Shown here one piece after another: positions 4,091 through 61,044 of a stretch of DNA of 64,000 nt (position 1 is the stretch's first letter; each line of letters begins with the position of its first letter). Location: positions 1,706,561 through 1,770,560 of the forward strand of contig OX639992.1 of NCBI GenBank assembly GCA_951828515.1, in the 5' to 3' direction. The notes beneath the pieces were generated by a model, which saw nothing but the letters and a program-made list of their open reading frames with translations, was not told the origin of the DNA and made no database searches. Source of the stretch: an uncultured Poribacteria bacterium (GTDB lineage Bacteria > Poribacteria > WGA-4E > WGA-3G). A program made the position numbers and the translations under genes.

Positions 4091-4142
4091 CCGGCTCTCC
4101 CAAGATTGGGCGGTAATTCCGGGATTTCAACGCACCCGCGGT

Positions 4143-6497: not shown

Positions 6498-6622
6498 AGA
6501 GTTGCACATGGCTGCTGCACGGGTGCAAAATATTGAGTCCTTCGCGCAAATGTTGAGCGAATAGCAACGCACTATAGGGGTAGAGACAGTTCCGCCTCTA
6601 CTGAAAAAAGGAGGAAACTGCG

Positions 6623-7275: not shown

Positions 7276-7293
7276 AAATCAATTAAAAAACCT

Positions 7294-7563
7294 ATGCCCA
7301 CTTACCGAAAAAAACTCATTGAGGTCAACATACCCCTCCAAGCCATTAACATAGAATCGGCAAAAGACGCTTCACTCACACATGGACACCCCTCAACCCT
7401 ACACCGCTATTGGGCACGCCGTCCGCTCGCCGCATGCCGCGCTGTCATCTTCGCCAGTATGGTAGACGACCCCTCCGAATGCCAAGACGAATTCCCGACT
7501 GAACCCGAACAGAACGCCGAACGCATTCGACTCCACAACCTCATGAAACGACTCGTGATATAG
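7294..7563 (+). pseudogene. DUF1156 DNA methyltransferase, N-terminal 89-codon stub only
   Basis: KKLIEVNIPL..IN.ES...ASLTHGHPSTLHRYWARRPLAACRAVIFASMVDDP is the characteristic DUF1156 N-terminus. The ORF stops after ...MKRLVI and about 590 nt of non-coding DNA follow. Family members are normally many hundreds of residues longer. Confidence 0.7.
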
Positions 7564-21742: not shown

Positions 21743-22792
21743 TTACAACGGCAATTCAACGGGACGTTCTTCACGGCTGGACTGGTAGATAGCGAGAATA
21801 ATCTCAACGGCTTTGCGTCCTTCGCGTCCATCAACGAGATGCGAGGCATCGTGTTCAAGCCCATTAATGAGGTTTTCCATCTGCCGTCGGTGATTGGCAT
21901 GGTTAATAGCTCTTGGATCGGATGCCCCACCGCCGGTGTCTGTTTTTTGAGCGAATTTCTCTCGGATTTCTGCATCTTCAGGCAGTTCCGGGTCGAATTC
22001 CCAAGTCACAATGTCTTCCTCGGCTAAAACGACAGTTCCGTTTGTGCCGGAAATTTCAGTTTTCTTAAGCATGCCGGGAAAAGCGGTAGTTGTGCCTTCA
22101 ATGACACCGAGTGCCCCGTTTTCAAATCGGAGTGCAGCGACAGCGGCATCTTCGACCTCTATCCGCTCGTGTGCCAAGGTATCGGTAAACGCTTGGACAG
22201 ATTTAACGGGTCCCATAAAATACTGGAGCAGGTCAATAGCGTGGATGGATTGGTTCATGAGCGCGCCACCACCATCAAGGTCCCACGTTCCTCGCCAGCC
22301 ACCGCTGTCGTAATACTCTTGAGAACGGTACCATTTGATGTAGGCATCGCCCAAAGTTAACTTGCCGAATCGTCCGCTCTCAATTGTGGATTTAACGAGT
22401 TGCGTACTTTCTGTGAAGCGGGAATTGAAAATAGCGCACAGCCGGACACCCGCTGCGTCGCACGCTTCAATAATCTGATCGCACCGTGGGAGCGTGATTT
22501 CCAACGGTTTTTCAACGATGACATGTTTGCCAGCTTCCGCTGCAGCGACAGCAGGTTCCAAATGCGCACCGCTCGGCGTACAGATGCAAACGATATCTAA
22601 GTCGTCCCGTTTGAGCATCTCGGCATAATCGGTATAACTGTCGACATTGTAGCGATCGGTGAGCCGTTTAGCGTTCTCGGCATTTCGTGAACTGACTGCG
22701 ACTAATTGCCCGTGTTCTAATTCAGAAATCGCGACGGAATGAAAATCGGAGATCATTCCGCACCCAATAATACCAAATCCGTATGTCTTCAT
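21743..22792 (-). CDS. Gfo/Idh/MocA family oxidoreductase
   Basis: YGFGIIGCGMISDFH and the EKPL motif (VIVEKPLE); 349 aa. Confidence 0.85.
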   Translation of the reverse strand: MKTYGFGIIGCGMISDFHSVAISELEHGQLVAVSSRNAENAKRLTDRYNVDSYTDYAEMLKRDDLDIVCICTPSGAHLEPAVAAAEAGKHVIVEKPLEITLPRCDQIIEACDAAGVRLCAIFNSRFTESTQLVKSTIESGRFGKLTLGDAYIKWYRSQEYYDSGGWRGTWDLDGGGALMNQSIHAIDLLQYFMGPVKSVQAFTDTLAHERIEVEDAAVAALRFENGALGVIEGTTTAFPGMLKKTEISGTNGTVVLAEEDIVTWEFDPELPEDAEIREKFAQKTDTGGGASDPRAINHANHRRQMENLINGLEHDASHLVDGREGRKAVEIILAIYQSSREERPVELPL

Positions 22793-22852
22793 ATTCTTAA
22801 CTATCGTCCTTTACTACACGATCTGACTGTAGGTCAGATCATTGGAAAAATT

Positions 22853-23491
22853 ATGACCTCCAACGAGAATCAAGTTTCAGAGCACGCGCCTACAGAGGAA
22901 CAAGACTCTGAGCAGACACCTACGAATAAAGTCTTCAGAATCGTCTGTATGACGTTTTGCCTTGCAGTGACGGTGCTGTTTCTCTGGGTCTGGCATCATC
23001 AAACCCAGTTCAATGATCATTACCGGAAAGCAACTTTTCTGATGCGCAACGGTGAAGCCAAGCAAGCGATCGAAGCGTACCAGAAGGCAATCAAAAACAA
23101 GGCTCGCACCATCTTTTTCACCAAAGAACCGTCGGTTTACAATAACCTTGGGCAAGCCTATCTATACGACGAACAATATGCTCCCGCTGTTGAGAACTTT
23201 AAAAAAGTGATTGAGATGGCACCGAATATCGCGGAAGGCTACGTTAATCTGACCACCGTCTATCTCCGGCAGAATTTACCAACCGACGCGCGCGAGCGGT
23301 GTCTACGCGCCCTTCAAACCTTCCCGAAGACCGCCCTGCTTCATTACAACCTCGCATGCGCTTACGCGTTAGAGGGCGAATCCCAAAAATCGGTAGACTC
23401 GCTTACGCAAGCAGTAACACTTAACCCGGACCTCAAAGCACTTGCACAACGAGAGGACGCGCTTAAGGAGATTGTACCTGAACTTCCTTGA
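22853..23491 (+). CDS. TPR-repeat protein with N-terminal transmembrane segment
   Basis: The ATG at 22853 follows the divergent gene's start. There is a TM (IVCMTFCLAVTVLFLWVW) and several TPR-like units (AIEAYQKAI, NNLGQAYLYDEQYAPAVENFKKVIEMAPN, HYNLACAYALEG). Confidence 0.7.
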   Translation: MTSNENQVSEHAPTEEQDSEQTPTNKVFRIVCMTFCLAVTVLFLWVWHHQTQFNDHYRKATFLMRNGEAKQAIEAYQKAIKNKARTIFFTKEPSVYNNLGQAYLYDEQYAPAVENFKKVIEMAPNIAEGYVNLTTVYLRQNLPTDARERCLRALQTFPKTALLHYNLACAYALEGESQKSVDSLTQAVTLNPDLKALAQREDALKEIVPELP

Positions 23492-23519: not shown

Positions 23520-24035
23520 TCAATGCAGAACATTCGCTAACTTTCCACCACAGCGCGCCGTCTTAATCTCAAACGATTTGCCCCGGAAATGGACTTTTGA
23601 TTGGCTTTTGCTGAGTTGTCTGACCTCCGCTCTACTAATCCCATTATGAAATAAAACGGGATAGCAGACGCTTTTAACACTCCGCGGCGTGTAATCAATG
23701 GCAAAAGCAGCTCCGGCTTTTAACTGTTCCACTGCTTCTGATGCGTCAACATTACCGCCACCCTTGAGTTCTATTGGAACTACAATAAAGTTTTCTGTAT
23801 CATCGAAGTAGAAGAGAACGCACTCACACTGATTTTCCCCTTCTTGTCCACTCGGAAATACTGCGTCTAAATCCACGACAACTCGATCATTTTCTGAGAT
23901 ACCGGTTAGGTCTGCGCTACATCGCCCGCGTCTGAATGAGTTCCCGTTAAAAAGACTTTCTCTACCTACCTTATCCCGGATATTCTCAAGAATTTCACTC
24001 CTGCTCAACCTCGGTGCCTCCTGTTGCTTCTTCAA
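23520..24035 (-). CDS. Small PD-(D/E)xK-like protein of unknown function, partner of the upstream ATPase
   Basis: The only in-frame starts are TTG (24035 or 24008). The TTG at 24008 is preceded by AGGAGG with an 8-nt spacer. The candidate nuclease core is VVVDLD...VLFYFDD...FIVVPIELKGG (D ... E-x-K). It overlaps the ATPase stop by 14-41 nt. Confidence 0.55.
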   Translation of the reverse strand: MKKQQEAPRLSRSEILENIRDKVGRESLFNGNSFRRGRCSADLTGISENDRVVVDLDAVFPSGQEGENQCECVLFYFDDTENFIVVPIELKGGGNVDASEAVEQLKAGAAFAIDYTPRSVKSVCYPVLFHNGISRAEVRQLSKSQSKVHFRGKSFEIKTARCGGKLANVLH

Positions 24036-25470
24036 TTTGGGTTCGGAGGTCCACCGAACGATTGTAGAGTTTCTCAGCTACTTCTCCATACTCCTCCGGT
24101 TCTATGCCAGCGATGCGTTCAAATGGAATTTCTTTTACTGGTTCGCTTTCACGGAACCACCACGCACCAACCTCTTCCTTCGTCAACCAAGTTTCCGGTT
24201 CTGTTTTATTTTTTTCCAGTTTCATTACTTCACCCTCGCGAACCAAATTGCCAATTTGCTCAAGGAGCCAGTCGCTATGCGTCGTGATAATCACGCGGAC
24301 ACCAGCTCGAACCAAACGGGCAAGGGTTAGGGCAACCTTAGTTTGGGCAGCGGGGTGTAGATGGGCTTCAGGTTCTTCAATGACGAGCGTATCATTAGGT
24401 TGAATAATTCCACGTAAAAACAAGACAAGTGGGGCGAGTTCCGATACCATTGATGATGACCTACTCATTGATAGAGATTGCTTTGCCTGCTGTGGATGGT
24501 AACGGAATTCAGGGAATCCCGCTGCAGGTTCTGAAACTCTTATCTCTCCACGCAGCACATTTGTCTCCAGTGCTTCGGCGATCTCAAGTATTCTACCCGA
24601 GGACCTGTTTCTTACCTTGTAATTAATAATCTGTTTTAGAAAGTCCGCTATCACTCCTGAAAACGCTGGAACTTCAGACAGAGTTTCCAAACCGATACGG
24701 CTGTTGACAAAATCTATGAGAGAACTAGCAATCACACGACGGCTCTGCACGATGCCACCCCGAGCAGCAGGTAAGTAATGCAATTGCGAAGTCTCCCGCC
24801 CAGAAACACGAAAAAGTCGCATAAGATCTTCAAAATCCAGTGTTTCTTCCGGTCCCTCACCAGTCCCTGGTTTAAGAACTATGTCCTTGTTAATAAAACC
24901 GTTTACAATGGAATTGGAGTCAGAATCGTGCATGAGGTCAAAAGACCACAAGCACTGATCTCCTTCACGGACGTTTAGCGAAACTTCCATTTTATTCCGA
25001 GCATCACCGGTGAAGCGTATCAACTCTGAAATGGATTCCAAATCAAAACACCGTTGGAGTTCATCTTCAAAGGCTGTAGATTTCTTGAGATTAGATTCTA
25101 ACCAAGACCGCATCTGATCGGGTAAATCTGAAAACTTGAAGGGTCGTCCATGTGTATTCAGTTTTTCGAGCATTTCCATAGTTTCTACCTGTAGATCTAC
25201 CTGTTCTTGAATCTCCAGGGACCGACTTCGAGCGCGGTAAGCGAACCTTAAGTAAGAACTGGCCCTAGATGACCACGGAAATTGCGAAAACCCCTCAAAA
25301 CTTTGGTATAATGCATAGATGAGTGCGGCGAGATATGTCTTACCGGTATTGCTCTCACCCACAAAAACAGTCAGCGGACGCAGATCTATCTCCGCCTTTT
25401 CTATCGGTCCAAAATTCTCCACTGCAATATGGATATCTGGGTGCTGCCGTCCATGCTCGGTTTTTCGCAT
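23995..25470 (-). CDS. ABC/OLD-class (AAA_15/AAA_21-like) P-loop ATPase
   Basis: Walker A (VFVGESNTGKTY), a long helical insertion, a Q-loop-like YLPAARGG, Walker B (DTLVIEEPEAHLHP) and an H-loop (VIITTHSDWL). Confidence 0.8.
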   Translation of the reverse strand: MRKTEHGRQHPDIHIAVENFGPIEKAEIDLRPLTVFVGESNTGKTYLAALIYALYQSFEGFSQFPWSSRASSYLRFAYRARSRSLEIQEQVDLQVETMEMLEKLNTHGRPFKFSDLPDQMRSWLESNLKKSTAFEDELQRCFDLESISELIRFTGDARNKMEVSLNVREGDQCLWSFDLMHDSDSNSIVNGFINKDIVLKPGTGEGPEETLDFEDLMRLFRVSGRETSQLHYLPAARGGIVQSRRVIASSLIDFVNSRIGLETLSEVPAFSGVIADFLKQIINYKVRNRSSGRILEIAEALETNVLRGEIRVSEPAAGFPEFRYHPQQAKQSLSMSRSSSMVSELAPLVLFLRGIIQPNDTLVIEEPEAHLHPAAQTKVALTLARLVRAGVRVIITTHSDWLLEQIGNLVREGEVMKLEKNKTEPETWLTKEEVGAWWFRESEPVKEIPFERIAGIEPEEYGEVAEKLYNRSVDLRTQIEEATGGTEVEQE

Positions 25471-25599: not shown

Positions 25600-26388
25600 C
25601 TATCTTTTCAGCTTACCCCACACCGTCGCCAATTTGCCGCGGGCAGAAACATCAAGCGTATCGTTGATGATTTTCTGGATGTCTGCTTCAGAAAGTGCGT
25701 AGTTGGCTAACATTAATTCGTCGATTCTACCCTGAAAGAAACGCGGGCAGCATCCGTTATTTTCGCCACCGAATCGCAAAGACTTGTCTGGTCTGGTTAG
25801 ACCAGGCCCCTTCTGTGCGATAGCCGTACCATCGGATTCCCCATTAATATAAAAACGGGCTTCGCTACCATCCCAGGCAATGGCAACATGCGACCATTCT
25901 TTCGCCTTTATTTTCCCATCAGAAATATGGTAACCTGGACTACTGGTCTCGTAGAAGTAATAAGCAAGCTGTCCCGCACCCGGCTCAATTTGCAGATAGT
26001 AGGTGTTCTTGTAGAAAATCGTGAACTTGTTCTCCTGCCCACCCGCCGGAAGTTCGTCAGGGTAAACCCATGCCATCATCGTAATGGCTTCATCTATGTC
26101 GAGCTCATCGGAGTGTGCGACATCTATGAAATCGGCTTTACCGGCCTCACCAGCCATTTGCACGGCGTTCCCTGAAATGCCTTCAGCCCACTTCACATCG
26201 CCGTCGAATTCACCGACCAAACCAGCAGTCTCATCCTTAGCCTCTTTCCCTTTGCCTTCATCGAAATGCCAGACATATAACTTCTCGCCGAGCTGTTTCA
26301 CGTTACCTTTTCCGCCCGCAGCGTAACCCGCAAAGCAGAGAGATAGACTTAGAAAAACGCATAGCATCATCAAAATCTGGGTTCTCAT
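25600..26388 (-). CDS. Secreted LamG/concanavalin-A-like domain protein with C-terminal TVWGKLK tail
   Basis: Signal peptide (MRTQILMMLCVFLSLSLCFAG). LamG pattern (WHFDEGKGKEAKDETAG..., ITMMAWVYP, WSHVAIAWDGSEARFYINGE, GRIDELMLANYALSEADI). The tail is KLATVWGKLKR. Confidence 0.8.
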   Translation of the reverse strand: MRTQILMMLCVFLSLSLCFAGYAAGGKGNVKQLGEKLYVWHFDEGKGKEAKDETAGLVGEFDGDVKWAEGISGNAVQMAGEAGKADFIDVAHSDELDIDEAITMMAWVYPDELPAGGQENKFTIFYKNTYYLQIEPGAGQLAYYFYETSSPGYHISDGKIKAKEWSHVAIAWDGSEARFYINGESDGTAIAQKGPGLTRPDKSLRFGGENNGCCPRFFQGRIDELMLANYALSEADIQKIINDTLDVSARGKLATVWGKLKR

Positions 26389-26415
26389 TGGTGGTTCCTC
26401 CCTTTAGAATGAACA

Positions 26416-26441
26416 AAAGGGCGGGTCAAACCCGCCCCTTT
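26416..26441 (-). terminator. Rho-independent terminator candidate between the two LamG genes
   Basis: The minus strand reads GGGGCGGGTTTGACCCGCCC followed by TTTTGTT. Confidence 0.55.
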
Positions 26442-26503
26442 AGTAAACTTGGCAACAAGCAGGCATTGTGGCACTGCCGCTATGACAGAGAATATTTATT
26501 CAG

Positions 26504-27274
26504 TTACATTTTCAACTTGCCCCACGTTGTGGCAAGTTTATCCTTGGGCGATACAGCAAAATAAACGCCGTTTTCCATATCTTGGTTAATCTCGTCAACG
26601 GTGAGGGCGCGGTCATAGATGGCGACTTCATCAACCAAGCCAATCATACCGGGCAATCCCGTTTGTGCCTTACCGATACGGAAGACGACTTCAATGCTGT
26701 TAATTTCACCCTTCGGTGGTGCGAATTCAACATCTAATTTGCCGTCAATATATTGGCGAATCATATCACCATCGTAGGTAGAAGAAACGTGGTGCCACTG
26801 CTCCAAATCGGGTTTAATTGTCTGTTTATTCCGTGAACCTTTCCACCCACCGATGTTAATCCACGTCTCAATTTGCGGGGAACCCGTAAACTGAGCACTC
26901 CACTGAAGGCAATAGCCGCCAACGTTTGCAGAGCTTCTGCGTCCCATCAAGTTAGAGTCACCTTGGGATTCCTCAGGGAAAAACCATGCCTGAATCGTGA
27001 TCTCATCCGTAATGTCGAGTTCAGGAACTGCGTCAACCTCTACAAACTGTTCGGAAGCTTCAAGATGCACAGCACCGCCAATTTTACCGTCTTTCGACCA
27101 TACGGCACCTTCAAGGGTACCTTCGATGTTATTGCCACTTACATCTTTCACCTTGCCACCATCGTCTTCATCGAAAGTGAAATACAACATGAGCGCCTTG
27201 TCATCGTTTATTGCCCACGCATCGACACTAAGACTTAGTGCAATGAGGCAAAAAACTGTGATAATAGTTTTCAT
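26504..27274 (-). CDS. Secreted LamG/concanavalin-A-like domain protein with C-terminal TTWGKLK tail
   Basis: Signal peptide (MKTIITVFCLIALSLSVDAWA). LamG pattern (FTFDEDDGGKVKDVSGNN, ITIQAWFFP, WHHVSSTYDG, GLVDEVAIYDRALTVDEI). The tail is KLATTWGKLKM. Confidence 0.8.
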   Translation of the reverse strand: MKTIITVFCLIALSLSVDAWAINDDKALMLYFTFDEDDGGKVKDVSGNNIEGTLEGAVWSKDGKIGGAVHLEASEQFVEVDAVPELDITDEITIQAWFFPEESQGDSNLMGRRSSANVGGYCLQWSAQFTGSPQIETWINIGGWKGSRNKQTIKPDLEQWHHVSSTYDGDMIRQYIDGKLDVEFAPPKGEINSIEVVFRIGKAQTGLPGMIGLVDEVAIYDRALTVDEINQDMENGVYFAVSPKDKLATTWGKLKM

Positions 27275-29093: not shown

Positions 29094-29206
29094 GGGCTGT
29101 CGGCAGTCAGCAATCAGCAGTCAGTTAAGGGTTTGTGGCAGTCGCGTTTTGCGTGAATTCCACAAATCTCTCTTTAACCGATAACCGATAACCAACAACC
29201 GATAAC
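29094..29206. repeat. Heptad-arm palindromic intergenic element (copy 6)
   Basis: GGGCTGTCGGCAGTCAGCAATCAGCAGTCAGTTAAGGG, inner stem TTTGTGG/CCACAAA, then CTCTTTAACCGATAACCGATAACCAACAACCGATAAC. It runs up to the neighbouring stop codon. Confidence 0.85.
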
Positions 29207-30021
29207 TACTTGGCATTAGAACTCGTAGGCACACCGTCATTCATCACAAGTGGAAAATGGTCGCCTGCTAATTTATCACCATCGTTGACGGCAACAAAAG
29301 GTTTCATAACATGGTTTCCGCTGGCATCGTATAGCGTCTCATCTGTCATATAATGCACCGCAATCGCACGCCGAGGGTTATCGCTTGTGTTGTCATGCGA
29401 TCCGTGCCACGTTAAGGAATGATGGTAATGGACATGTCCTTTCGGTACAGGGCAGAACTCTACCTCTAATTCGTTATCTTCAAAGCGATCCGGCATAGAA
29501 TGGATGTCCTTGACGGAATGCAGGAACGGAATCTGATTGCCCCAATGGTGAGAACCACGAACCATACGCATACATCCATTACCTTCATCAACATCATCCA
29601 ACGCAACCCAAGCCGATACCTGACTCGTTTTCGGGGTAAGGATTGGCCAATAAGGTGAATCTTGGTGCCACATGTTGACGCCACCAACATGCGGCGGTTT
29701 GTATTGAATCTGATCATGCCAGACCCGCAACTCTGTCGCTGACATCAGTTGTCCAATATCTTCGACAATCACCGGATTGTGAACGAGTCGGTGATAGGCA
29801 GAACTCGCCTCCCAAATATTAACGACTTGCCAGACCGGACTCTCTTCTCTGCCGCCGAGATTGACGATATGCACCGGCTGCGGAACATCGGTTTTCTCGT
29901 AATCATCAATAACACGTGCCAATTCCGAACGCAACGCCTCAACCTGCTTATCACTTAAAACACGGTTACCGAGGAGGAACCCTTTTTCACGAAATGTGTC
30001 AACCTGGGTTTGGTTGAGCAT
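29206..30021 (-). CDS. Phytanoyl-CoA dioxygenase (PhyH) family protein, tandem paralogue 1
   Basis: LNQTQVDTFREKGFLLGNRVLS, WHQDSPYW (H-x-D) and LTWHGSHDNTS. It is strongly similar to the adjacent gene. Confidence 0.8.
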   Translation of the reverse strand: MLNQTQVDTFREKGFLLGNRVLSDKQVEALRSELARVIDDYEKTDVPQPVHIVNLGGREESPVWQVVNIWEASSAYHRLVHNPVIVEDIGQLMSATELRVWHDQIQYKPPHVGGVNMWHQDSPYWPILTPKTSQVSAWVALDDVDEGNGCMRMVRGSHHWGNQIPFLHSVKDIHSMPDRFEDNELEVEFCPVPKGHVHYHHSLTWHGSHDNTSDNPRRAIAVHYMTDETLYDASGNHVMKPFVAVNDGDKLAGDHFPLVMNDGVPTSSNAK

Positions 30022-30047
30022 ATCTGTCTCCTATAGATAGAAAAGAT

Positions 30048-30860
30048 TTATATGTTGGGTTTTGTCGGTTCTCCAGCATCCATCACAAGCGGAAAATGGT
30101 GTCCCGCTAATTTATCACCACCATTGATGGTAACAAAACGTTTCATGATGTGAGTGCCATCCTTATCGTAAAGGGTTTCACCCGTCATATAATGCACGGC
30201 AATTGCACGTCTGGGTCCATCACTGGTGTTGTCGTGCGATCCGTGCCATGTCAAGGCGTGATGATAATGGACATGTCCTTTCGGCACAGGACAGAGTTCC
30301 ACTTCCAATTCGTTACCCTCAAATTGATTCGGCATCGAATCGATGTCTGGAACCTCCCGCAAAAATGGCATCTGGCTTCCCCAGTGATAGGAACCGCGGA
30401 CCATGCGCATACATCCGTTGCTCTCATCAACATCGTCCAACGCAACCCAAGCCGATACCTGACTCGTTTTCGGGGTGAGAATCCCCCATAACGGTGAATC
30501 CTGATGCCAGCGGTTCACACCACCGACCTGTGGCGGTTTGTACTGGATCTGGTCGTGCCAGACGCGCAACTCTGTTGCCGACATGAGTTGCCCAATCTCT
30601 TCGACAATCAATGGATTGTGAACCAGTCGGTGATAGGCAGAACTCGCCTCCCAAATATTGACGATCTGCCAGACTGGACTCTCTTCCTTACCGCCGAGAT
30701 TCGCAATGCGCACGGGTTGCGCAATATCGGTTTTTTCATAGTCATCAATAACACGCGCCAATTCCGAACGCAACTCGTCGACTTGTTCATCACTTAAAAC
30801 ACGGTTTCCGAGAAGAAAGCCTTTTTTACGAAATGTGTCAACCTGAGTTTGATTAAGCAT
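30048..30860 (-). CDS. Phytanoyl-CoA dioxygenase (PhyH) family protein, tandem paralogue 2
   Basis: Collinear with 29206-30021 over the full length (by eye roughly four-fifths identical); same H-x-D and distal His motifs. Confidence 0.8.
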   Translation of the reverse strand: MLNQTQVDTFRKKGFLLGNRVLSDEQVDELRSELARVIDDYEKTDIAQPVRIANLGGKEESPVWQIVNIWEASSAYHRLVHNPLIVEEIGQLMSATELRVWHDQIQYKPPQVGGVNRWHQDSPLWGILTPKTSQVSAWVALDDVDESNGCMRMVRGSYHWGSQMPFLREVPDIDSMPNQFEGNELEVELCPVPKGHVHYHHALTWHGSHDNTSDGPRRAIAVHYMTGETLYDKDGTHIMKRFVTINGGDKLAGHHFPLVMDAGEPTKPNI

Positions 30861-33675: not shown

Positions 33676-33756
33676 ATTGATACGGAGTGATAGACCCCCA
33701 GCTAAAGCATGGGGGTTTTGACACCGAAGTTTGATAAAGAAGTGGAGGAATCGAAC

Positions 33757-34557
33757 ATGAATGCTGACGAAAAATATCTATTCGATCTGAATGGTTACCT
33801 CGTTGTCAAGAACGTGCTAACACCCGAAGAGGTAGCAATAGCGAATGAAGCGATTGATAAACATAGCGAGCAAGGACGCATCCGTCCACGCGAACAGGCA
33901 CTCGATGGCGGCTCCCCGGAATTAAAAGGTGAGCAGGGCAGAGCGGAACTCGGCGGTATGCTCAATTGGGAGGAACCGTGGTGTAATCCGTTCCGACACA
34001 TGCTTGCACACCCGACACTCATTCCTTATCTCAATGAAATATTGGGAAAAGGGTTTCGAATGGATCATCAGATGTTCCTGCTTTCAATGGACAAGGGTGC
34101 AGAGGGGCATACGTTCCATGGCTCCTCCGGTCCTGGTTTCGATCCGAACCAATACTATATTTTCCGTGACGGACGTATGCACAACGGCTTGACTGTCGTT
34201 ACATTCCAATTGACGGATGTGCCACCCGGAGCGGGTGGGTTAATCGTTATACCGGGAAGCCATAAGAGCAACTACCCGTGTCCGCAAAAGATGCGGCTTT
34301 ACCAAGAACACCAAGAGAACATCCGACAACTCGTCTGCAACGCCGGCGATGTGGCAATCTTCACGGAGGCGGTGACGCACGGAACACTTCCGTGGACAGC
34401 CGACCATCCGCGCCGCTCCATTCTAACCCGGTATACCGCAGGCAACATGGCGTATGTTCCTGCCTATGAAATACCGGAATGGGCAAATGAGCGACAGCGT
34501 GCTGTCATGGAACCACCTTATCATTCGCGATTAAATCGTCCCACCTTGGAAACATAG
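33757..34557 (+). CDS. Phytanoyl-CoA dioxygenase (PhyH) family protein, tandem near-identical copy 1
   Basis: MNADEKYLFDLNGYLVVKNVLT, PGSHKSNYP and FTEAVTHGTLPW. It is 266 aa if started at the ATG at 33757. Confidence 0.8.
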   Translation: MNADEKYLFDLNGYLVVKNVLTPEEVAIANEAIDKHSEQGRIRPREQALDGGSPELKGEQGRAELGGMLNWEEPWCNPFRHMLAHPTLIPYLNEILGKGFRMDHQMFLLSMDKGAEGHTFHGSSGPGFDPNQYYIFRDGRMHNGLTVVTFQLTDVPPGAGGLIVIPGSHKSNYPCPQKMRLYQEHQENIRQLVCNAGDVAIFTEAVTHGTLPWTADHPRRSILTRYTAGNMAYVPAYEIPEWANERQRAVMEPPYHSRLNRPTLET

Positions 34558-34652
34558 GAAGGTTTTTAATTTATGGGATCCTGGACTGCGCTCTGCTCCG
34601 CTTACGCGCAGGTTTCTGGTGAGGTCGCAACTGAAATAAGGAAAGTTAAAAT

Positions 34653-35453
34653 ATGAATGCTGACGAAAAATATCTATTCGATCTGAACGGTTACCTCGTT
34701 GTCAAGAACGTGCTAACACCCGAAGAGGTAGCAATAGCGAACGAAGCGATTGATAAACATAGTGATCAGGCACGCATCCGTCCACGTGACCAGACGCTTG
34801 ATGGTGGCTCTCCGAAACTGAAAGGGGAGCAGGGCAGAGCGGAACTCGGCGGTATGCTCAATTGGGAGGAACCGTGGTGTAATCCGTTCCGACACATGCT
34901 CGCGCATCCTACACTTGTTCCCTATCTCAATGAGATATTGGGAAAGGGCTTCCGTATGGATCATCAAATGTTTCTGCTTTCAATGGACAAAGGGGCAGAA
35001 GGCTTCATTTTCCACGGATCTTCAGGTCCCAGTTTTGATCCGAATCAATACTATATTTTCCGTGACGGACGCATGCACAACGGCTTGACTGTCGTTACAT
35101 TCCAATTGACGGATGTGCCACCCGGAGCGGGTGGGTTAATCGTTATACCGGGAAGCCATAAGAGCAACTACCCGTGTCCGCAAAAGATGCGGCTTTACCA
35201 AGAACACCAAGAGCATATCCGACAACTCGTCTGCAACGCCGGCGATGTGGCAATCTTCACGGAGGCGGTGACGCACGGAACACTTCCGTGGACAGCCGAC
35301 CATCCGCGCCGCTCCATTCTAACCCGGTATACCGCAGGCAACATGGCGTATGTTCCTGCCTATGAAATACCGGAATGGGCAAATGAACGCCAGCGTGCTG
35401 TCATGGAACCACCCTATCATTCGAGATTAAATCGTCCCACCTTGGAGACGTAG
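34653..35453 (+). CDS. Phytanoyl-CoA dioxygenase (PhyH) family protein, tandem near-identical copy 2
   Basis: It differs from 33757-34557 at 10 of 266 residues by manual alignment. The C-terminal half has a single difference. Confidence 0.85.
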   Translation: MNADEKYLFDLNGYLVVKNVLTPEEVAIANEAIDKHSDQARIRPRDQTLDGGSPKLKGEQGRAELGGMLNWEEPWCNPFRHMLAHPTLVPYLNEILGKGFRMDHQMFLLSMDKGAEGFIFHGSSGPSFDPNQYYIFRDGRMHNGLTVVTFQLTDVPPGAGGLIVIPGSHKSNYPCPQKMRLYQEHQEHIRQLVCNAGDVAIFTEAVTHGTLPWTADHPRRSILTRYTAGNMAYVPAYEIPEWANERQRAVMEPPYHSRLNRPTLET

Positions 35454-43113: not shown

Positions 43114-44736
43114 ATGAAGTTGTACAACAAACCCACCAACTGCGTCATGGTGGGTATTTATGTTTTATTCATAGGTGTCCTTTGTCGTCCTGTGGCGGCT
43201 TACATAGAAGGACCTTGGCTATGGATGATTGCCAGTGGTGAGAAAGTGGATGAAGACCAGCTTGCTGTGGCAAGCAGAGGAAAATTTACGGAAAACCTTG
43301 TTGCTGAATACGGTGTAAATGAAGGTGATGCCGCAGGACTGTTGCGATGGACGCGCGGCCGAATACGCCCTACAGTCGATTGCTTGTTCCGGGACTGGCT
43401 TTGCAATTCCAATAACGTCAACGATGTCATCAATAAAATAGGGTTAAGCACAGACAGTGGAATAAATTACCATGCAGCGTACGCTTTGATTAACATCGTC
43501 TCACCACGCGACCGAAAAAACGTCGCAATGGGTGTAGGTAGCGATGATGCAGTTAAAGTTTGGCTCAACGGAGAAATCGTACATGTGAATAACGTCAATA
43601 GGGGCACTACAGGTATTCAAGACCTGTTTCGCGTCGATCTAAAAACTGGCAGTAATCTCCTACTTGTTAAGGTAACGGATAGATTTGGGCATTGGGGCAT
43701 GTTCTTCGAGATCTATCTTGACAAGGCAAATTTCACCACTGAACTTCCTACCGGAACCCCTGGAATTTCTCTCGCTACGCAAATGTATGAAAAATATAGT
43801 GCAATCCTTCAACAACCGGAAATCCGAGAACGAGTGCCGGCTGTCCTGGGACACCTGCAGAGGCCCGAAATACAAGCACTGTTAACGCCTGTTACGATAG
43901 ATGCTGTTGTTAAAAATCCGGATCTTCTTGGAACATTCGGCGTAGATGATGAAGTGATCCAATTCCTTAAAGCACATCCGAGTATCAGAATCATGTTCAG
44001 CGATCCCGACTTTCAAACGCTGCTGCAAAATCCAGAGGCTCTTTCAGAATTCGCCGGGCTCATTACAGAGGATTCCCATGTGAAAATACCCAAACGCCAG
44101 CGACAACAACCCGGAGATGTTGACGGCAATGGGGTCGTAGATATACAGGACCTTGTATCTATCGCCTCGCGTTTCGGTCAAAAAGGACAGAATCCCGCGG
44201 ATGTCAACGGCGACAAGACGGTTGATATTCGGGACCTTGTTTTGGCTGCCGCCTTAATGACAGCCGGAAGAGCCGCACCTTCTGCTTACGCTGCCATAGG
44301 AACGAACCCCGATAATTTACCGCTACAGCCTGAGGACATCGAACTTTGGCTGACTCAAGCCCAACGACTTGATTTGAGCAAGCCAATGCTACAAAGAGGG
44401 GTCCACGTGCTCGCGCATCTCATGGAGATGCTAACGCCAAAAAGGACACACCTCTTGCCTAATTATCCGAACCCCTTCAATCCAGAGACATGGATCCCCT
44501 ATCAACTCGCCGAAGCAGCAGATGTTACGCTCACCATCTACGCCGCAGATGGACGCTTGATTCGGACCCTGGCGTTGGGGCATCAGTCTACAGGGATATA
44601 TCAGAGCAAAAGCCGAGCGGCGTATTGGGATGGGCGGAATGCGTTGGGTGAGCCTGTCGCAAGTGGCATCTATTTCTATACGCTCAGGGTTTCCGGAGAA
44701 TTCACTGCTACACGGAAGATGTTGATTCGGAAATAA
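43114..44736 (+). CDS. Secreted protein with jelly-roll-like N-domain, dockerin-type repeats and FlgD-Ig/T9SS-type C-terminal sorting domain
   Basis: Signal/TM (VMVGIYVLFIGVLCRPVAA). Two dockerin-like Ca-binding repeats (GDVDGNGVVDIQDLV, ADVNGDKTVDIRDLV). C-terminus: NYPNPFNPETWIPYQL...ASGIYFYTLRVSGEFTATRKMLIRK. Confidence 0.75.
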   Translation: MKLYNKPTNCVMVGIYVLFIGVLCRPVAAYIEGPWLWMIASGEKVDEDQLAVASRGKFTENLVAEYGVNEGDAAGLLRWTRGRIRPTVDCLFRDWLCNSNNVNDVINKIGLSTDSGINYHAAYALINIVSPRDRKNVAMGVGSDDAVKVWLNGEIVHVNNVNRGTTGIQDLFRVDLKTGSNLLLVKVTDRFGHWGMFFEIYLDKANFTTELPTGTPGISLATQMYEKYSAILQQPEIRERVPAVLGHLQRPEIQALLTPVTIDAVVKNPDLLGTFGVDDEVIQFLKAHPSIRIMFSDPDFQTLLQNPEALSEFAGLITEDSHVKIPKRQRQQPGDVDGNGVVDIQDLVSIASRFGQKGQNPADVNGDKTVDIRDLVLAAALMTAGRAAPSAYAAIGTNPDNLPLQPEDIELWLTQAQRLDLSKPMLQRGVHVLAHLMEMLTPKRTHLLPNYPNPFNPETWIPYQLAEAADVTLTIYAADGRLIRTLALGHQSTGIYQSKSRAAYWDGRNALGEPVASGIYFYTLRVSGEFTATRKMLIRK

Positions 44737-44826: not shown

Positions 44827-46002
44827 TTAACGTCTGGCATGCTGTGATTCCGCAGGAGCGCGGTATTCAACATTAAGATGTGGGGTTTCTAAACGGATAT
44901 GCCCTTGAAGTCGCGAGGTCAGGCAACTTTCCAAAGCACCGCTCACCAGTAACGTTCGTTCTGCCGGATATGGTGCGACACCCGTTTCAAAAAGCTCCTC
45001 GATTTTGGCGATAAGACACGCAGAATAGGTGACGTTTGGCGTGGGTGTTAAGAAAAACTGTGTTGACACTGGAACAGGTTCGTCCTTCAGTTTCGCGGCA
45101 AAGCAGTAATCCCGCACCGCACCATTGAGCATCAAAAGCGTCGCCCTCAATCCGTCGTTATATTCAATGAAATAAGCGGATGGATTCTCGGCGAGCCGGT
45201 AAATTTCATCATTACGGATCATATCTTGTGTTCTACCGTCTTCATCCGTTAAACCGCACGGCGTATCACTTCTCGAAAGTGCCGCTTCCAACAATTCCAG
45301 AGACCAGCGTCCGTCCTCGCCCGCCTTCCAGACTTCCTCACCATCTATTAATTGGACAGCCGCAACCCCAGTTTCGCCTCCTTTTCGGCGTTCTATCATA
45401 CATTGCATTGCCTCCAAGGCATGATAATCCATCGGATCCGAGCCGCCAACACCGACCATAAGTGCTTCCTCTATCTCGCACTCCAACGGCAATTCGACAT
45501 CCGGTAACCGCCATGTGACAGGCAACGACGAACCCGCGAGCACTCCAAAACCGAGGCGGTGTCCATCGTCCACCATCTCTTTCGCTTTCTCAAAACTGTA
45601 GGAGAGGTGCTTGTCGTTGTAGACAGGCACGGCACGTCCATCCGTCTCAAAGACCTTGACGCACTCTTTGAAAAATTCGTACCGCGGATATAACACTTGG
45701 TTCATTTCATTGTGCGGGTAATCACCGTGTTCACCGATGAGCAACACAGCATCCACAGCAATCTCATCACCACCGCACCGCAGTGCTTCAGTAATAGTAG
45801 GGTAGACAGAGAAACCGAACTCTTTGGCACGGTCGAGACTTTGGTCGCCCTCTGGCTTCTGGTCAACAAAAAGTGAGACCACTTTCATATCCGGACGATG
45901 CCATCTCCCTTCAGTTGGATAGCCAACGAGAAACCTATCGGCGAAGTGCTGTGCGTGCGATAGGTAACGGTAGATAGTAGCAATAACAGCAATTCGTTTC
46001 AT
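44827..46002 (-). CDS. Conserved hypothetical protein, paralogue A of a tandem pair
   Basis: The ATG at 46002 (MKRIAVIATIYRYLSHAQHFADRFL) lies 4 nt after the upstream paralogue's stop. Shared motifs are IGEHGDYP.NE, LYPRYEFF and AGSSLPVTWR. Confidence 0.6.
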   Translation of the reverse strand: MKRIAVIATIYRYLSHAQHFADRFLVGYPTEGRWHRPDMKVVSLFVDQKPEGDQSLDRAKEFGFSVYPTITEALRCGGDEIAVDAVLLIGEHGDYPHNEMNQVLYPRYEFFKECVKVFETDGRAVPVYNDKHLSYSFEKAKEMVDDGHRLGFGVLAGSSLPVTWRLPDVELPLECEIEEALMVGVGGSDPMDYHALEAMQCMIERRKGGETGVAAVQLIDGEEVWKAGEDGRWSLELLEAALSRSDTPCGLTDEDGRTQDMIRNDEIYRLAENPSAYFIEYNDGLRATLLMLNGAVRDYCFAAKLKDEPVPVSTQFFLTPTPNVTYSACLIAKIEELFETGVAPYPAERTLLVSGALESCLTSRLQGHIRLETPHLNVEYRAPAESQHARR

Positions 46003-46006
46003 AACT

Positions 46007-47349: not shown

Positions 47350-48411
47350 TTACTTTTCATCTCCCTGTTTCTTGAGTTCTCCCCAGCGTCTCGGAAGTTT
47401 GCCTTTTGGGTTCACCGCCAGAAAGCCGGTGTCGTACGCCTCAACGATCGGTGAAAATATTCCGTTGTCTAACCAACCCCCCAAGAGATAGATGGTGCCA
47501 TTCACAACAACCGCCGTTGTTGCTTTTGGGATTGTTATGGGTGGCGCTTTGTGCCATTTGTTGACTGTTGGATTATAAATATCTACAGCATCAATGCGTC
47601 TAGACCAATTGTTCCGATCATAACCGCCTATTGTCCAAATCTCATTACCGACGACAACGGTTTCAAACCAACATTTTGGCATGGGTATATCAGGACGTTT
47701 ACGCCACGTGTTGATTTTAGGATTATACTCCTCAATAGCATCAACAAGGCGATCACCAAGGGGTCCCGCGAACGAAACTTCACCACCGAGAACATAAACT
47801 TTACCGTCTACAACTTCAGCCTTCGCCCATCCCCGTTCTGTCGGCATATTCGCTCGCTTCTCCCATCTATCGGTCAAAGGATCGTAAACCTCAACAAGAC
47901 CTATAGCCTCGCGTTTACCGAGTTTATTGTTGTGAATACTCCCACCAATGATGTATATCTCTCCGTCAACGACCGCGGTGACGAAACCCTTACGGCGCGT
48001 TGGCATATTCCGCTTCTTGACCCACGTATCGGTGCGTGTGTCATACATCTCAACGGTTTTTGTGTATTCGCCGCGCATCTCCTCTCTACCCCCAAACACA
48101 TAGATGTCGGTGGAAAAAACGGCAGCTCTGGCAGAAATCCGCGCTGTCGGCATACTTGCGGCTTTCTGCCATGTGTCCGTCCGCGTGTCGTAGACATCTA
48201 CCGTTGAAAGTGCAGGGGCACCACCCCCTAAATTTTCATGGTGATCGAAACCACCGGTCAGGTAAATTTTACCATTCACAGCCGCGGCTGCCATGCCCCT
48301 TCTCCATGTTGGCAGTTCGGATATCTGTTCCCAACCCCCAGCAAAACTGTTAGAGACACCAACGAGGAAAAGGATAATAAGCCATTGCAAATACCTGTAT
48401 TTTGCGAACAT
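47350..48411 (-). CDS. Secreted Kelch-repeat beta-propeller protein with divergent RRWGELK tail
   Basis: Signal peptide (LQWLIILFLVGVSNSFAGG). There are six or so repeats of the form ...G(K/E)IY..GG......V(E/D)VYD..TD.W...A.MP..R. The C-terminus is VNPKGKLPRRWGELKKQGDEK. Confidence 0.8.
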   Translation of the reverse strand: MFAKYRYLQWLIILFLVGVSNSFAGGWEQISELPTWRRGMAAAAVNGKIYLTGGFDHHENLGGGAPALSTVDVYDTRTDTWQKAASMPTARISARAAVFSTDIYVFGGREEMRGEYTKTVEMYDTRTDTWVKKRNMPTRRKGFVTAVVDGEIYIIGGSIHNNKLGKREAIGLVEVYDPLTDRWEKRANMPTERGWAKAEVVDGKVYVLGGEVSFAGPLGDRLVDAIEEYNPKINTWRKRPDIPMPKCWFETVVVGNEIWTIGGYDRNNWSRRIDAVDIYNPTVNKWHKAPPITIPKATTAVVVNGTIYLLGGWLDNGIFSPIVEAYDTGFLAVNPKGKLPRRWGELKKQGDEK

Positions 48412-50266: not shown

Positions 50267-50274
50267 TTTTTTAG

Positions 50275-55482: not shown

Positions 55483-56073
55483 ATGAAACTGGTTTATGTT
55501 TGTATCGCGGCACTCTGTATTGCGACCGCATTAACTGTCTTCGCTGCTGATCCAGTGGTCGTCACAGAAATAAAGGATAACAAGGGCGGGATTTATAAAG
55601 CCGTCGAGTTGGAAGAGGGTGGGAAATTTTTCCACGATAGGGACTATACGATTACAACTATTCCGAAAGATTTTCTTGGACTAACGCAAGTCTCCACGTC
55701 AGCAGACTGTCCTGGCGGACAAGACTACCGACTCACGTTTGAAATCGACCGGCCGGCTTATATCTACCAAGCATGGGATAGCCGACATACACCTCCAGAA
55801 GACCGTGGACAGGATCCGAAAGGCTGGTTTACAAAGGGATATACGGATACTGAAGAAATCCTCATGTTGGATGCCCCACACGCTCCAACCGAATATCATA
55901 TCTACAAATCCAATGAACCGCATCCGAAAGGAGTCGTGGAATTGCTCGGTATTGATGAGGTTATTGGGGACCCGGTCCTCATGTGGACGATCTTCCTCGA
56001 AGAAGGTGTGCTTCCCGTTGACCCGGCTGGGAGTCTAACGACAACATGGGGTGAAATCAAATCCGATCGGTAG
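55483..56073 (+). CDS. Secreted protein of unknown function with C-terminal TTWGEIK tail
   Basis: The ATG at 55483 gives a signal peptide (MKLVYVCIAALCIATALTVFA). The C-terminus is VDPAGSLTTTWGEIKSDR. Confidence 0.65.
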   Translation: MKLVYVCIAALCIATALTVFAADPVVVTEIKDNKGGIYKAVELEEGGKFFHDRDYTITTIPKDFLGLTQVSTSADCPGGQDYRLTFEIDRPAYIYQAWDSRHTPPEDRGQDPKGWFTKGYTDTEEILMLDAPHAPTEYHIYKSNEPHPKGVVELLGIDEVIGDPVLMWTIFLEEGVLPVDPAGSLTTTWGEIKSDR

Positions 56074-58764: not shown

Positions 58765-59571
58765 CTATTTGTTTAACTGTTGTTTAATTCTGCCCCACGT
58801 TGTTGCCAATTTGTCCACAGGGTCAACTGCCGCGGCGGTTTCAACGCCGTTGTCCATGAGAAATTTCATATCCTCTTCTTCCAAGGCAACATCGAAGAGG
58901 GCAACATCGTCGATGATGCCTGCAGTATATCGGTCATAGTGCCGCCCAATATGAAATACACCTTCACCCGTGCCGTATCCGTCTTTTTCATTGAAATCAG
59001 TCTCGGCTTCCATTTCGCCATCTATCCATATCGAAGCCTTACCAGTACCTGCGTCGGCTCTACCAACGACAAAGTGCCATTTGTCGTCTCCAATTTCGGT
59101 TCTGCCATCTGCTCGGAAACTTGTTGATGCACTGTCGCGCAGGTAGAGAGTCACCTTGTTATCGCCACCTCCGTTCCAGAGTAGATACCACGGGAGCGCC
59201 TGTGATGTATCCTCGTAGTTTTTGCCAACAAGCGCACCGGCGACCCTGGTGCCTTTGAAATGGCAGATGATCGTGAAGGAGACACCCGCCTTAAATCCGA
59301 CAGTGTCTGAGTGCGGAACTTCAACCCAGTTGCTGGCACCGTCAAATTCAAGTGCTTTTCCAAATTTCCCATCGACCCATTTCGCGCCGTGGATTTCACC
59401 GTCGTTTCCATGCTCTGACGAATCCGTAGCAACATTGCCCTTTCCTTCGTCAAAGAGCCACATTCCTGTAATATTCTCGGGGTCAATCTTCGCAAAACTG
59501 GGTAGTGCTACCAGTAAAAAGACTACCATAAAACTCGCGAGCGATATTCGGACACCTTTAAACAAAGACAT
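58765..59571 (-). CDS. Secreted LamG/concanavalin-A-like domain protein with C-terminal TTWGRIK tail
   Basis: Signal peptide (ISLASFMVVFLLVALPSFA). LamG pattern (WLFDEGKGNVATDSSEHGNDGEIHG, FTIICHF, WHFVVGRADAG). The tail is DKLATTWGRIKQQLNK. Confidence 0.8.
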   Translation of the reverse strand: MSLFKGVRISLASFMVVFLLVALPSFAKIDPENITGMWLFDEGKGNVATDSSEHGNDGEIHGAKWVDGKFGKALEFDGASNWVEVPHSDTVGFKAGVSFTIICHFKGTRVAGALVGKNYEDTSQALPWYLLWNGGGDNKVTLYLRDSASTSFRADGRTEIGDDKWHFVVGRADAGTGKASIWIDGEMEAETDFNEKDGYGTGEGVFHIGRHYDRYTAGIIDDVALFDVALEEEDMKFLMDNGVETAAAVDPVDKLATTWGRIKQQLNK

Positions 59572-59819: not shown

Positions 59820-60065
59820 TTAAAACGACTTCGACTTGATTCGCCCCCATGTGGTGGTGAGAGAGGCACTATTCGGACTGATAGAAAGTGCGCCGCTGGT
59901 AGTAGCACCCTTTATCCCGATTAGAGTGTTACTATTTCCTGACGCATCTTGAAACCGGTCTGCACCTGCTGACTCATCAAAATTCCATAGAGCCAAGGTG
60001 TGTTCATCACTCTCAAAACGATGGGGTGGATCAAAGGGTTCAATGCCCGTGATTGACAAAGGCAT
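59820..60065 (-). CDS. LamG-family relic: N-terminal strand fused to the TTWGRIK tail (81 codons, no signal peptide)
   Basis: LALWNFDESAGADRFQDASGNSNTLIG matches the start of the LamG domains above and then runs directly into SLTTTWGRIKSKSF. Confidence 0.45.
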   Translation of the reverse strand: MPLSITGIEPFDPPHRFESDEHTLALWNFDESAGADRFQDASGNSNTLIGIKGATTSGALSISPNSASLTTTWGRIKSKSF

Positions 60066-60195: not shown

Positions 60196-61044
60196 TTGCT
60201 GCTGAATGGATCGGTTAACGCAGCGTTCGAGAACATTGAACTCATGGCGGGTCCCGCAGGGATGGGTGGCGCGTACTCGGCGGCGACCCAGGATACCAGT
60301 GCCCTGATATGGAACCCTGCAGGTTTGGCAGGATTACCTACACCTGAAATCGGCATCAGTTACATGGATCTATATGGCGTGTTGGGTTACAGTTTCGTGG
60401 GAGTGGCACACCCAATTCGGAGTGGACAAACTGTTGGCGCAGCAATTTTGAACTCAAGCGATATAGAAGGCATTTCTCAAGAACGGATTGTGCTGCTGTC
60501 TTCTGCAGTTCGTGTATGGAAGGGGTTTCACATCGGTATTAATGCGAAATATTTCAGCACTTCAGTCAATTTGGAACAGATGCCGTTAGGGCGCGGAACA
60601 GGATGGGGCACCGATCTCGGCATTCAGTACGCTCCCATAACAAATTGGATTAGAATCGGCATAGTATTCCCGAATCTGTTCTCCAACCTGTCTTATCATC
60701 GACTTGAAAAGACGACTTCCAAGAGTACCTACAACGAATCGCTTCTACGTGAATGGCGTATCGGTTCTGCTGTAAAAATCAACCTTGGTTCAGGAATACC
60801 AGATAGAAAATCGGATGCTCTGTTAGCGGCTTTTGAGGTTGCGAATGGTATTCCGCTTATCGGATGCGAGTACCGGAGCGACGTCCGATACGGTGAATTC
60901 GCGTTGCGGTTGGGATGGCGTTTCAACGATGGACTTACCGCTGGGTTCGGTTATCAGCGCGGCAATATCGGTTTAGACTACGCCTTTGTGAATGATAGAT
61001 ACGGCTCGCAGACCTCGCTATTTTCAGTCCGCCTGTTCTACTGA
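60196..61044 (+). CDS. PorV/PorQ-like outer-membrane beta-barrel protein; true start unclear
   Basis: AGPAGMGGAYSAATQDTSALIWNPAGLAGL is the conserved N-terminal motif of PorV/PorQ-type barrels. Alternating beta-strand pattern ends ...SLFSVRLFY. The frame is open upstream to 60115 and encodes a signal-peptide-like KLSAYLLLILILLLNGSVNA without an ATG/GTG. Confidence 0.65.
   Translation: MLLNGSVNAAFENIELMAGPAGMGGAYSAATQDTSALIWNPAGLAGLPTPEIGISYMDLYGVLGYSFVGVAHPIRSGQTVGAAILNSSDIEGISQERIVLLSSAVRVWKGFHIGINAKYFSTSVNLEQMPLGRGTGWGTDLGIQYAPITNWIRIGIVFPNLFSNLSYHRLEKTTSKSTYNESLLREWRIGSAVKINLGSGIPDRKSDALLAAFEVANGIPLIGCEYRSDVRYGEFALRLGWRFNDGLTAGFGYQRGNIGLDYAFVNDRYGSQTSLFSVRLFY

Follow-up and report, generated by a model that had tools for sequence, protein, structure and literature searches.

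The 64,000 nucleotides analysed here (the window, part of contig OX639992.1 of an uncultured Poribacteria bacterium; GC content about 48%) encode six proteins that end in the same peptide of about 20 residues. Judged by comparison across genomes, this tail is a portable peptide tag that appears specific to Candidatus Poribacteria, the label borne by 90-96% identical homologues of the window proteins, and that is maintained by selection on its amino-acid sequence. The tag is real and C-terminal, it is linked to N-terminal signal peptides and lies apart from the fold of its cargo, and it is unlike the catalogued C-terminal signals. As it matches no described sorting signal, it probably represents a route, so far undescribed, by which exported proteins are sorted or docked within the cell envelope. 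A preliminary description of this DNA had proposed a portable C-terminal module and a possible new sorting or recognition tag; its position, the diversity of its carriers and the link to export support the module, and we infer the remainder, namely reading by a partner with sorting or anchoring as the outcome. None of the papers searched mentions the motif, or any Poribacteria C-terminal signal besides the Por C-terminal domain.

Six tailed genes in a 64-kb window

Exactly six open reading frames (ORFs) in the window end with the motif, and no other real gene contains it. They are the same six, at the same places, that the preliminary description had quoted:

25600-26388, minus strand: LamG_3 (Laminin_G_3) protein ending ...SARGKLATVWGKLKR; tail at 25600..25659 (minus), TLDVSARGKLATVWGKLKR then stop, a T-V-W variant without Pro
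26504-27274, minus strand: LamG_3 protein ending ...SPKDKLATTWGKLKM; tail at 26504..26563 (minus), YFAVSPKDKLATTWGKLKM then stop
47350-48411, minus strand: Kelch propeller protein ending ...NPKGKLPRRWGELKKQGDEK, divergent; tail at 47350..47424 (minus), FLAVNPKGKLPRRWGELKKQGDEK then stop
55483-56073, plus strand: 196-aa protein without a Pfam family, ending ...DPAGSLTTTWGEIKSDR; tail at 56008..56073 (plus), VLPVDPAGSLTTTWGEIKSDR then stop
58765-59571, minus strand: LamG_3 protein ending ...DPVDKLATTWGRIKQQLNK; tail at 58765..58836 (minus), AAAVDPVDKLATTWGRIKQQLNK then stop
59820-60110, minus strand: truncated gene remnant ending ...NSASLTTTWGRIKSKSF; tail at 59820..59888 (minus), LSISPNSASLTTTWGRIKSKSF then stop

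When all six reading frames of the window were scanned for W[GA].[ILVM]K, seven matches were obtained, six of them 1-6 residues from a stop and the seventh inside a 55-aa stop-to-stop segment. The DNA pattern YTNRCNACNACNTGGGGNNNNHTNAAR, which encodes L[AT]TTWGx[ILMFV]K, matched the window four times against 0.00 matches expected from shuffles. Pfam assigned LamG_3 to three of the six carriers, Kelch to one and no family to two, and signal-peptide-like N-termini were found in all five full-length genes, as had been described beforehand for both the unrelated upstream domains and the signal peptides. The sixth gene, also first described as a relic, is one because it aligns solely to the last ~75 residues of ~290-aa proteins, found in loci L022 and L115. 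Tailed orthologues of the LamG_3 protein 58765-59571 were found in L080, L028 and L018, and a homologue of the Kelch protein in L126 bears the canonical tail KLTTTWGAMKRR. A look-up for an exact copy of a window LamG protein found no record, and a 96% identical one (P0001) gave synteny only.

A peptide under selection

A relaxed search of the fetched loci yielded 177 tailed ORFs, from which the consensus ΦΦ[AP]-V-[EDS]-[PA]-x-[GDN]-K-L-[AT]-T-T-W-G-x-[LI]-K was derived. Counted from the Trp (W = 0), its positions are as follows; the frequencies depend in part on the pattern used in the search:

-13 to -11: hydrophobic, hydrophobic, A or P
-10: V (85%)
-9: E, D or S
-8: P or A
-7: variable
-6: G, D or N
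-5: K (78%)
-4: L (89%)
-3: T or A
-2: T (90%)
-1: T (88%)
0: W
+1: G (91%), otherwise A or S
+2: variable
+3: L or I
+4: K
beyond +4: 1-5 polar or basic residues, then stop

Homologues that were retrieved through their domains agree with this table, and in them W and K are invariant. The invariance of W and K, together with the near-invariant V, L, T, T and G and the narrow distance to the C-terminus, argues for a protein that reads the tail and not for a generic physicochemical role. A likeness to the Asp-box (SxDxGxTW) was considered and rejected, the spacing from G to W being 6 residues in the tail and 3 in the box.

Between tails, identity is 83% at codon positions 1 and 2 and 41% at position 3, and all synonymous codons for L, T, G, A, V and P are in use. 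Synonymous sites thus vary freely, which indicates that it is the peptide, rather than a nucleotide element, that is under selection. The frequency of tandem paralogues among tail genes (two or more in 49 of 103 loci) might suggest a repeat, terminator or mobile insertion at gene 3' ends, or else a recent duplication; however, the carriers are unrelated, the tail is conserved across a phylum whose GC content runs from 34 to 57%, and the pattern of codon positions and codon use refutes a DNA element, so that the probability left to such an origin is negligible.

Occurrence in Poribacteria

The DNA pattern for L[AT]TTWGx[ILMFV]K was searched in a collection of one genome per species and matched at least 117 stretches. 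Among the matches listed, 102 of the 117 stretches carry a Poribacteria label, ten further stretches hold true tails in unlabelled 'uncultured bacterium' metagenome-assembled genomes (MAGs) or in one Pseudomonadota-labelled sponge MAG, and five are chance matches, namely those in Marilutibacter, Exilibacterium, Synechococcus, Marinifilum and Acidihalobacter. Within the same listed matches, 129 of 134 individual hits were true tails, the distance from the Lys to the stop was nearly always 0-8 residues with a mode of 3 (one tail has a 12-residue extension), and no Poribacteria protein contained the motif internally. The enrichment of the tail in Poribacteria is overwhelming, and its placement at C-termini across genomes, proposed earlier as a check on the motif, is borne out. 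It was found in sponge-derived MAGs, in the single-cell genome WGA-3G and in a MAG from 3000 m depth in the ocean (L088), and is therefore not limited to one habitat.

As a control, the same DNA pattern was searched in a viral collection, where 13 stretches matched; 12 of these are plainly due to chance, the frame being riddled with stops or the match falling within an unrelated protein. The thirteenth, IMGVR_UViG_3300012947_000048 (L004), carries at 303-329 (plus strand) an apparently genuine tail, ...PSLQRPKLATTWGHLKSGK followed by a stop, and may be a Poribacteria fragment or prophage region that was filed as viral.

At a larger scale, a profile built solely from the tails of the window proteins and their homologues was searched against 1.84 billion proteins, giving 354 representatives of 50%-identity clusters at E <= 0.001; the motif was C-terminal in 132 of the best 148. 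Against a 5.8-billion-protein index a tail profile gave 47 candidates, all short fragments, the word index being ill-suited to a 20-residue motif. A local hidden Markov model of the 177 tails separated tailed ORFs (median 39.5 bits) from the top-scoring non-tailed ORF (15.6 bits). A few proteins carry more than one tail: three tandem copies of 'TIARGKLTTVWGKL' are present in P0370, P0334 has a pair of tail motifs one after the other, and the PD40 protein P0311 has one internal and one terminal tail and may be two fused tandem genes. These oddities are probably artefacts of gene calling or pseudogenes.

Cargo and export

To group the carriers independently of the tail, the last 25 residues were removed from 119 of them and the remainders were compared by blastp. 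They fell into 22 clusters, one of which reflects a chance hit, leaving about 21 unrelated families. At least 10 different Pfam families are represented. Laminin_G_3 proteins make up half of all carriers; the others include 3-keto-disaccharide hydrolases (3keto-disac_hyd, DUF1080), CBM9, F5/8 type C (discoidin), NPCBM, PD40 propeller, Kelch and DUF3108-like proteins, an ankyrin-repeat protein with an HExxH motif, giant proteins of 970-1400 aa with a lamin-tail domain (LTD), and several families without any model. Most carriers are small single-domain proteins (median 264 aa) and, going by their domain assignments, would mostly be non-catalytic modules of glycan-binding (lectin-like) or propeller type.

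Tail and export go together. Signal-peptide-like N-termini were found in 144 of 156 complete tailed ORFs (92%) as against 114 of 445 non-tailed neighbours (26%; Fisher p = 1.8e-51), an enrichment that the preliminary description had likewise put forward as a check. A transmembrane-like segment occurs in just one of the 156, and a lipobox-like site in three. The tail is also stable in families retrieved by domain similarity and not via the tail itself: it is kept in at least 115 of 120 homologues of the LamG protein 26504-27274, down to 52% identity, and in all 120 homologues of the unrelated 196-aa protein 55483-56073, down to 61% identity.

An extension outside the fold

AlphaFold2, supplied with homologue alignments, was applied to these same two proteins. 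In the LamG model the core has a predicted confidence (pLDDT) above 90 and the last 16 residues (241-256) have values of 52-57; in the model of the 196-aa protein, residues 182-196 fall below 50. Across both models the tail ranges from 38 to 57, and the cargo fold stops just ahead of it. Low confidence outside the folded core in two families points to an appended peptide and not to the last strand of a domain, and the tail is, in these models, probably a flexible extension. A reading of the tail as the last strand of LamG was rejected on the grounds of carrier diversity and these models, in keeping with the earlier claim that it does not belong to any one family. The core of the 196-aa protein is predicted to be a beta-sandwich like the accessory domains of GH138 and GH2 enzymes, and Foldseek returned 6hzf and 6hpd with E about 3e-5.

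In its N-terminal half the tag is spaced like a propeller-type strand-turn-strand, which suggests that the tag may become ordered as a strand or hairpin on a partner. The only non-tail matches of the tail profile are repeat proteins, with units such as LAVDRNGNVTAVW; P0269, for example, repeats LAVDxxGNhThVW. A search of PDB sequences with the profile gave nothing significant, only short chance matches showing an 'h-A-h-x-P-x-G-K-L' strand-turn motif, and YAINPNGKL is repeated in a designed propeller in the PDB.

Relation to known C-terminal signals

The six proteins and the isolated 30-residue tails were compared with Pfam and with NCBIfam release 20 (June 2026). No model matched the tail at E <= 10, in line with the earlier remark that it could not be matched to a named sorting signal.

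The type IX secretion system (T9SS) provides one parallel. Like its C-terminal domain (CTD), the tail is a C-terminal address on proteins with Sec signals in a diderm, occurs on many unrelated cargo domains and coexists with PorV/PorQ-family barrels. Two genes of the window bear on this comparison:

43114..44736, plus strand: exported protein that combines dockerin-like EF-hand repeats with a FlgD_ig/T9SS-like CTD
60196..61044, plus strand: PorV/PorQ-family outer-membrane barrel, divergent neighbour of tailed LamG genes

Both had been recognised in the preliminary description, and both assignments stand. The first matches FlgD_ig, so that it served as a positive control for the CTD profiles and represents a second, different type of C-terminal signal in the same genome. 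The second matches NF033709 with E 1.3e-16 and 61 bits, below the curated cutoff of 90. The tail might accordingly be imagined as a cut-down T9SS signal, that is, a minimal CTD derivative that is served by PorV/PorQ-like barrels together with a T9SS-like translocon and is possibly cleaved and attached. The barrel gene adjoins two tailed genes, an arrangement that is kept in L080, L129 has a further PorV-like gene close to a tailed one, and many TIGR04183-type (Por-type) CTDs are reported from Poribacteria, where, however, no T9SS structural genes were found (Kamke et al. 2014, PMC3909097). This adjacency is seen in just 3 of ~110 loci, of which the window and L080 come from close relatives and are not independent. 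Furthermore, the CTD is a folded Ig-like beta-sandwich of 70-100 residues whereas the tail has ~20 and is modelled with low confidence, the difference in length having been noted from the outset; PF18962, TIGR04183, FlgD_ig and all NCBIfam models fail to match the six proteins or the isolated tails; and the CTD in the window ends differently (...TRKMLIRK). FlgD_ig/T9SS-like CTD proteins number two in ~1 Mb of sampled Poribacteria DNA, compared with 177 tails, and the two signals never occur on the same protein. A derivation from T9SS is therefore considered rather improbable; the barrel at 60196-61044 is a candidate partner of the tail, and is offered as a lead and not as a finding.

The signals of PEP-CTERM/exosortase, LPXTG/sortase, GlyGly-CTERM/rhombosortase and MYXO-CTERM resemble the tail in being short, lineage-restricted C-terminal tags on many paralogous exported proteins, often LamG-like ones, and PEP-CTERM also has a small Pro signature at its start (V-P-E-P, compared with V-[ED]-P in the tail). 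Such signals, however, combine a motif with a transmembrane helix and a basic cluster. Among the 177 tails, the top 15-residue Kyte-Doolittle window within the last 30 residues has a median of 0.27 and a maximum of 1.47, and none is of transmembrane grade, which extends to all tails the earlier remark that such a hydrophobic helix is missing. The tail thus has neither the PEP motif, helix and Arg-rich cluster of PEP-CTERM nor, with its L[AT]TTWG motif and no hydrophobic segment, the make-up of LPXTG; for GlyGly-CTERM and the other CTERM signals in NCBIfam, there is neither a profile match nor a transmembrane helix. Nor is the tail a type I secretion signal, because its carriers have N-terminal signal peptides. 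The beta-signal of outer-membrane proteins is likewise a strand-like C-terminal motif with Gly and an aromatic residue, but there the aromatic is terminal and the carriers are barrels, whereas the tail ends in polar or basic residues on soluble LamG, CBM or propeller domains.

Cleavage and covalent attachment would be a second way of accounting for the sequence. The tail may be cut at its V-[ED]-P hinge, or else at or after the invariant Lys, and either the C-terminus so created or the side chain of the Lys may be coupled to peptidoglycan or to a surface glycolipid by a transpeptidase; the nearest logic is that of sortase, PorU, or Lpp with an L,D-transpeptidase. The Lys at +4 and the well conserved Lys at -5 would suit such chemistry, as would the residues past +4, which are variable in sequence and narrowly limited in number. 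No transpeptidase or protease is consistently encoded near tail genes, though, and the tail has no hydrophobic retention segment, a feature of all known sortase- and exosortase-type signals, so that covalent anchoring of this kind appears unlikely.

In E. coli, PBP5 and PBP6 have C-terminal amphipathic anchors, and Braun lipoprotein is attached via its C-terminal Lys. Like these, the tail is a short peptide at the C-terminus of a soluble, Sec-exported domain, which it could tether to the envelope, and it has a conserved Lys near the end; by hydropathy, however, it appears neither hydrophobic nor strongly amphipathic, and its Lys is not terminal. An autonomous interfacial anchor, in which a Trp/Leu/Lys tail would stick to the membrane or to lipopolysaccharide as in PBP5 and PBP6, draws on the short helix that AlphaFold2 places, at low confidence, over TTWGKLK, on the alignment of L(-4), W(0) and L/I(+3) on one face of such a helix, and on Trp and Lys being typical interfacial residues. 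The mean hydrophobicity of the tail is negative, however (+0.38 for the PBP5 anchor), its helical hydrophobic moment of 0.34-0.43 (0.43 for PBP5) does not exceed its strand moment, three Thr in a row and a conserved Gly disfavour a helix, and strictly conserved polar positions fit a protein reader better than a lipid surface. Such an anchor is accordingly judged quite improbable. Still less credit is given to a tag for maturation or turnover, which a tail-specific (Ctp/Prc-type) protease would remove or which would serve quality control and not location. A flexible C-terminal extension on periplasm-exposed proteins, with a V-x-P hinge as a possible cleavage site, would be consistent with it, but it is the extreme C-terminus that PDZ proteases recognise, and this part of the tail is variable; moreover, strong conservation across so many unrelated families is hard to explain by such a tag.

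A putative docking tag

The reading that is favoured here, with confidence that is evenly balanced, is that the tail serves as a post-Sec docking or sorting tag that would be read by a shared component of the envelope; this function is inferred from sequence comparison and predicted structures. According to this model, the tail is appended to Sec-exported proteins that are neither lipoproteins nor membrane proteins. After export and removal of the signal peptide, the folded cargo would bear the tail as a flexible extension, to which a shared cell-envelope component would bind. The tail would become ordered on binding, probably as a strand or hairpin, and the tail-binding component would then retain, translocate or display the cargo at the cell surface. 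The tail would in effect be a miniature analogue of a CTD or dockerin, giving one common address to many glycan-binding modules. The dockerin-cohesin pair offers a similar portable C-terminal module and a single docking address for diverse carbohydrate-active or carbohydrate-binding modules, although a dockerin is a duplicated Ca-binding fold of ~60-70 residues, far longer than the tail, PF00404 (dockerin) matched none of the carriers, and no cohesin-like partner emerged.

Several points weigh against a docking or sorting tag of this kind. Analysis of the genes neighbouring tail loci revealed no partner, processing enzyme or transport machinery, and the recurrent neighbours are mostly abundant Poribacteria families (PhyH, GFO/IDH/MocA, sulfatase, TPR). 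The AlphaFold2 structure of the tail is of low confidence and shows a weak helix and no hairpin. The confinement of the tail to Poribacteria holds only for the matches listed (at least 117 stretches), and variant tails occur in one taxonomically unlabelled MAG with a GC content of 64-68%. The MAG in question, SRP200020_co5_420 (L030, L074 and L126), has tandem arrays of 5-7 tailed genes in which TTWAxLK (KLGTTWAALKG) and MWGWLKQ (ALMWGWLKQL...) variants occur beside canonical tails.

Alternatively, the tail may be a motif for assembly and not for sorting, docking lectins on a scaffold such as a CRTAC1-like FG-GAP propeller (ASPIC/UnbV) or TPR proteins, so that multi-lectin complexes are formed as by dockerin and cohesin. 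ASPIC/UnbV genes, the one neighbour family to stand out, if weakly, are found next to tail genes in L036, L045, L065, L081, L089, L103, L108, L112 and L120. They are immediate co-directional neighbours in 9 of 11 cases, compared with a base rate of 0.30 (p = 0.0007), and the tail genes beside them belong to at least four different carrier families; TPR genes often lie upstream of ASPIC/UnbV, and TPR-ASPIC-LamG(tail) operons recur in L081, L108 and L120. Moreover, the carriers, as mostly non-catalytic binding modules, would benefit from multivalent display. Once orthologous loci are collapsed, however, the support is weak, adjacency being seen in only 4 of 6 independent arrangements; both ASPIC and TPR form large poribacterial families; and most tail genes, including all six in the window, have no ASPIC or TPR neighbour of this kind. 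ASPIC/UnbV proteins are thus a possible functional partner or scaffold, to be taken as a lead and not as a finding, and assembly without sorting is held to be unlikely.

To return to the docking or sorting tag, a tag that has neither a membrane-spanning segment nor a folded domain is likely to have a reader that works differently from known systems, and there is a substantial chance that this reader is categorically new. A bolder proposal, which is put forward tentatively and carries somewhat less than even confidence, is an undescribed, phylum-specific envelope pathway for sorting and display, in which a strand/hairpin tag of ~20 residues without a transmembrane segment would be served by dedicated machinery that is neither sortase nor exosortase nor classical T9SS, and that would present a large and rapidly diversifying set of lectin-like modules on the poribacterial surface.

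Other genes in the window

Several neighbouring regions were also noted. Upstream of the Kelch tail gene, and directly adjoining it, are two tandem paralogues of ~390-430 aa (44827-47206, minus strand), which have no Pfam or NCBIfam match and, by eye, no signal peptide. Between the TPR gene at 22739-23491 and the LamG pair at 25600-27274 lie an AAA_15/AAA_21 ATPase (491 aa) and a 171-aa ORF (23520-25470, minus strand). This module looks like an inserted defence-type (OLD/Abi-like) cassette; in the otherwise syntenic relatives L131-L133 it is missing, and the TPR gene comes straight after the LamG pair. At the start of the window (1109-5861, plus strand), an HTH_3 and Peptidase_M78 (IrrE-like) protein and, after it, two proteins matching HEPN_Swt1 and DUF499 form a defence-like island. 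Five PhyH (phytanoyl-CoA dioxygenase) paralogues at 29206-30860, 33709-35453 and 49397-50341 agree with the expansion of phyH that Kamke et al. (2014, PMC3909097) reported in Poribacteria, and several GFO/IDH/MocA and MR/MLE genes are present as well.

The ORFs 57976-58755 and 57649-57948 (minus strand) are one frame (57649-58755) that is split by a single in-frame TGA. The former has two CarboxypepD_reg domains and a signal or lipobox-like N-terminus, and the latter matches AhpC/TSA. The context of the TGA, ...FYRGGW-TGA-PFCRGQ..., gives a W-U-P-F-C (UxxC) redox motif, and both TGA and motif are kept in L080 at 6317-7400 (plus strand). A small conserved hairpin, CAACUC...GAGUUG, lies 17 nt downstream; it is thermodynamically unremarkable and has no match in Rfam. 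The frame 57649-58755 encodes a candidate selenocysteine peroxiredoxin-like protein.

Implications for Poribacteria

Through each of the C-terminal tags LPXTG, PEP-CTERM and T9SS CTD, a machine dedicated to secretion or anchoring came to be discovered. The tag described here marks hundreds of protein clusters in Poribacteria, a dominant uncultivated candidate phylum of sponge symbionts, and bears on how their exported proteins reach their destination, given that the phylum was reported to have Por-type CTDs but no core genes of the T9SS. The motif amounts to a one-line rule by which the probable repertoire of surface or secreted lectins can be listed for any Poribacteria genome, and the tail itself is a defined peptide bait for a partner search. 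If the proposed role is true, display of this lectin repertoire would be a plausible molecular basis for recognising glycans of the sponge matrix or of particles.

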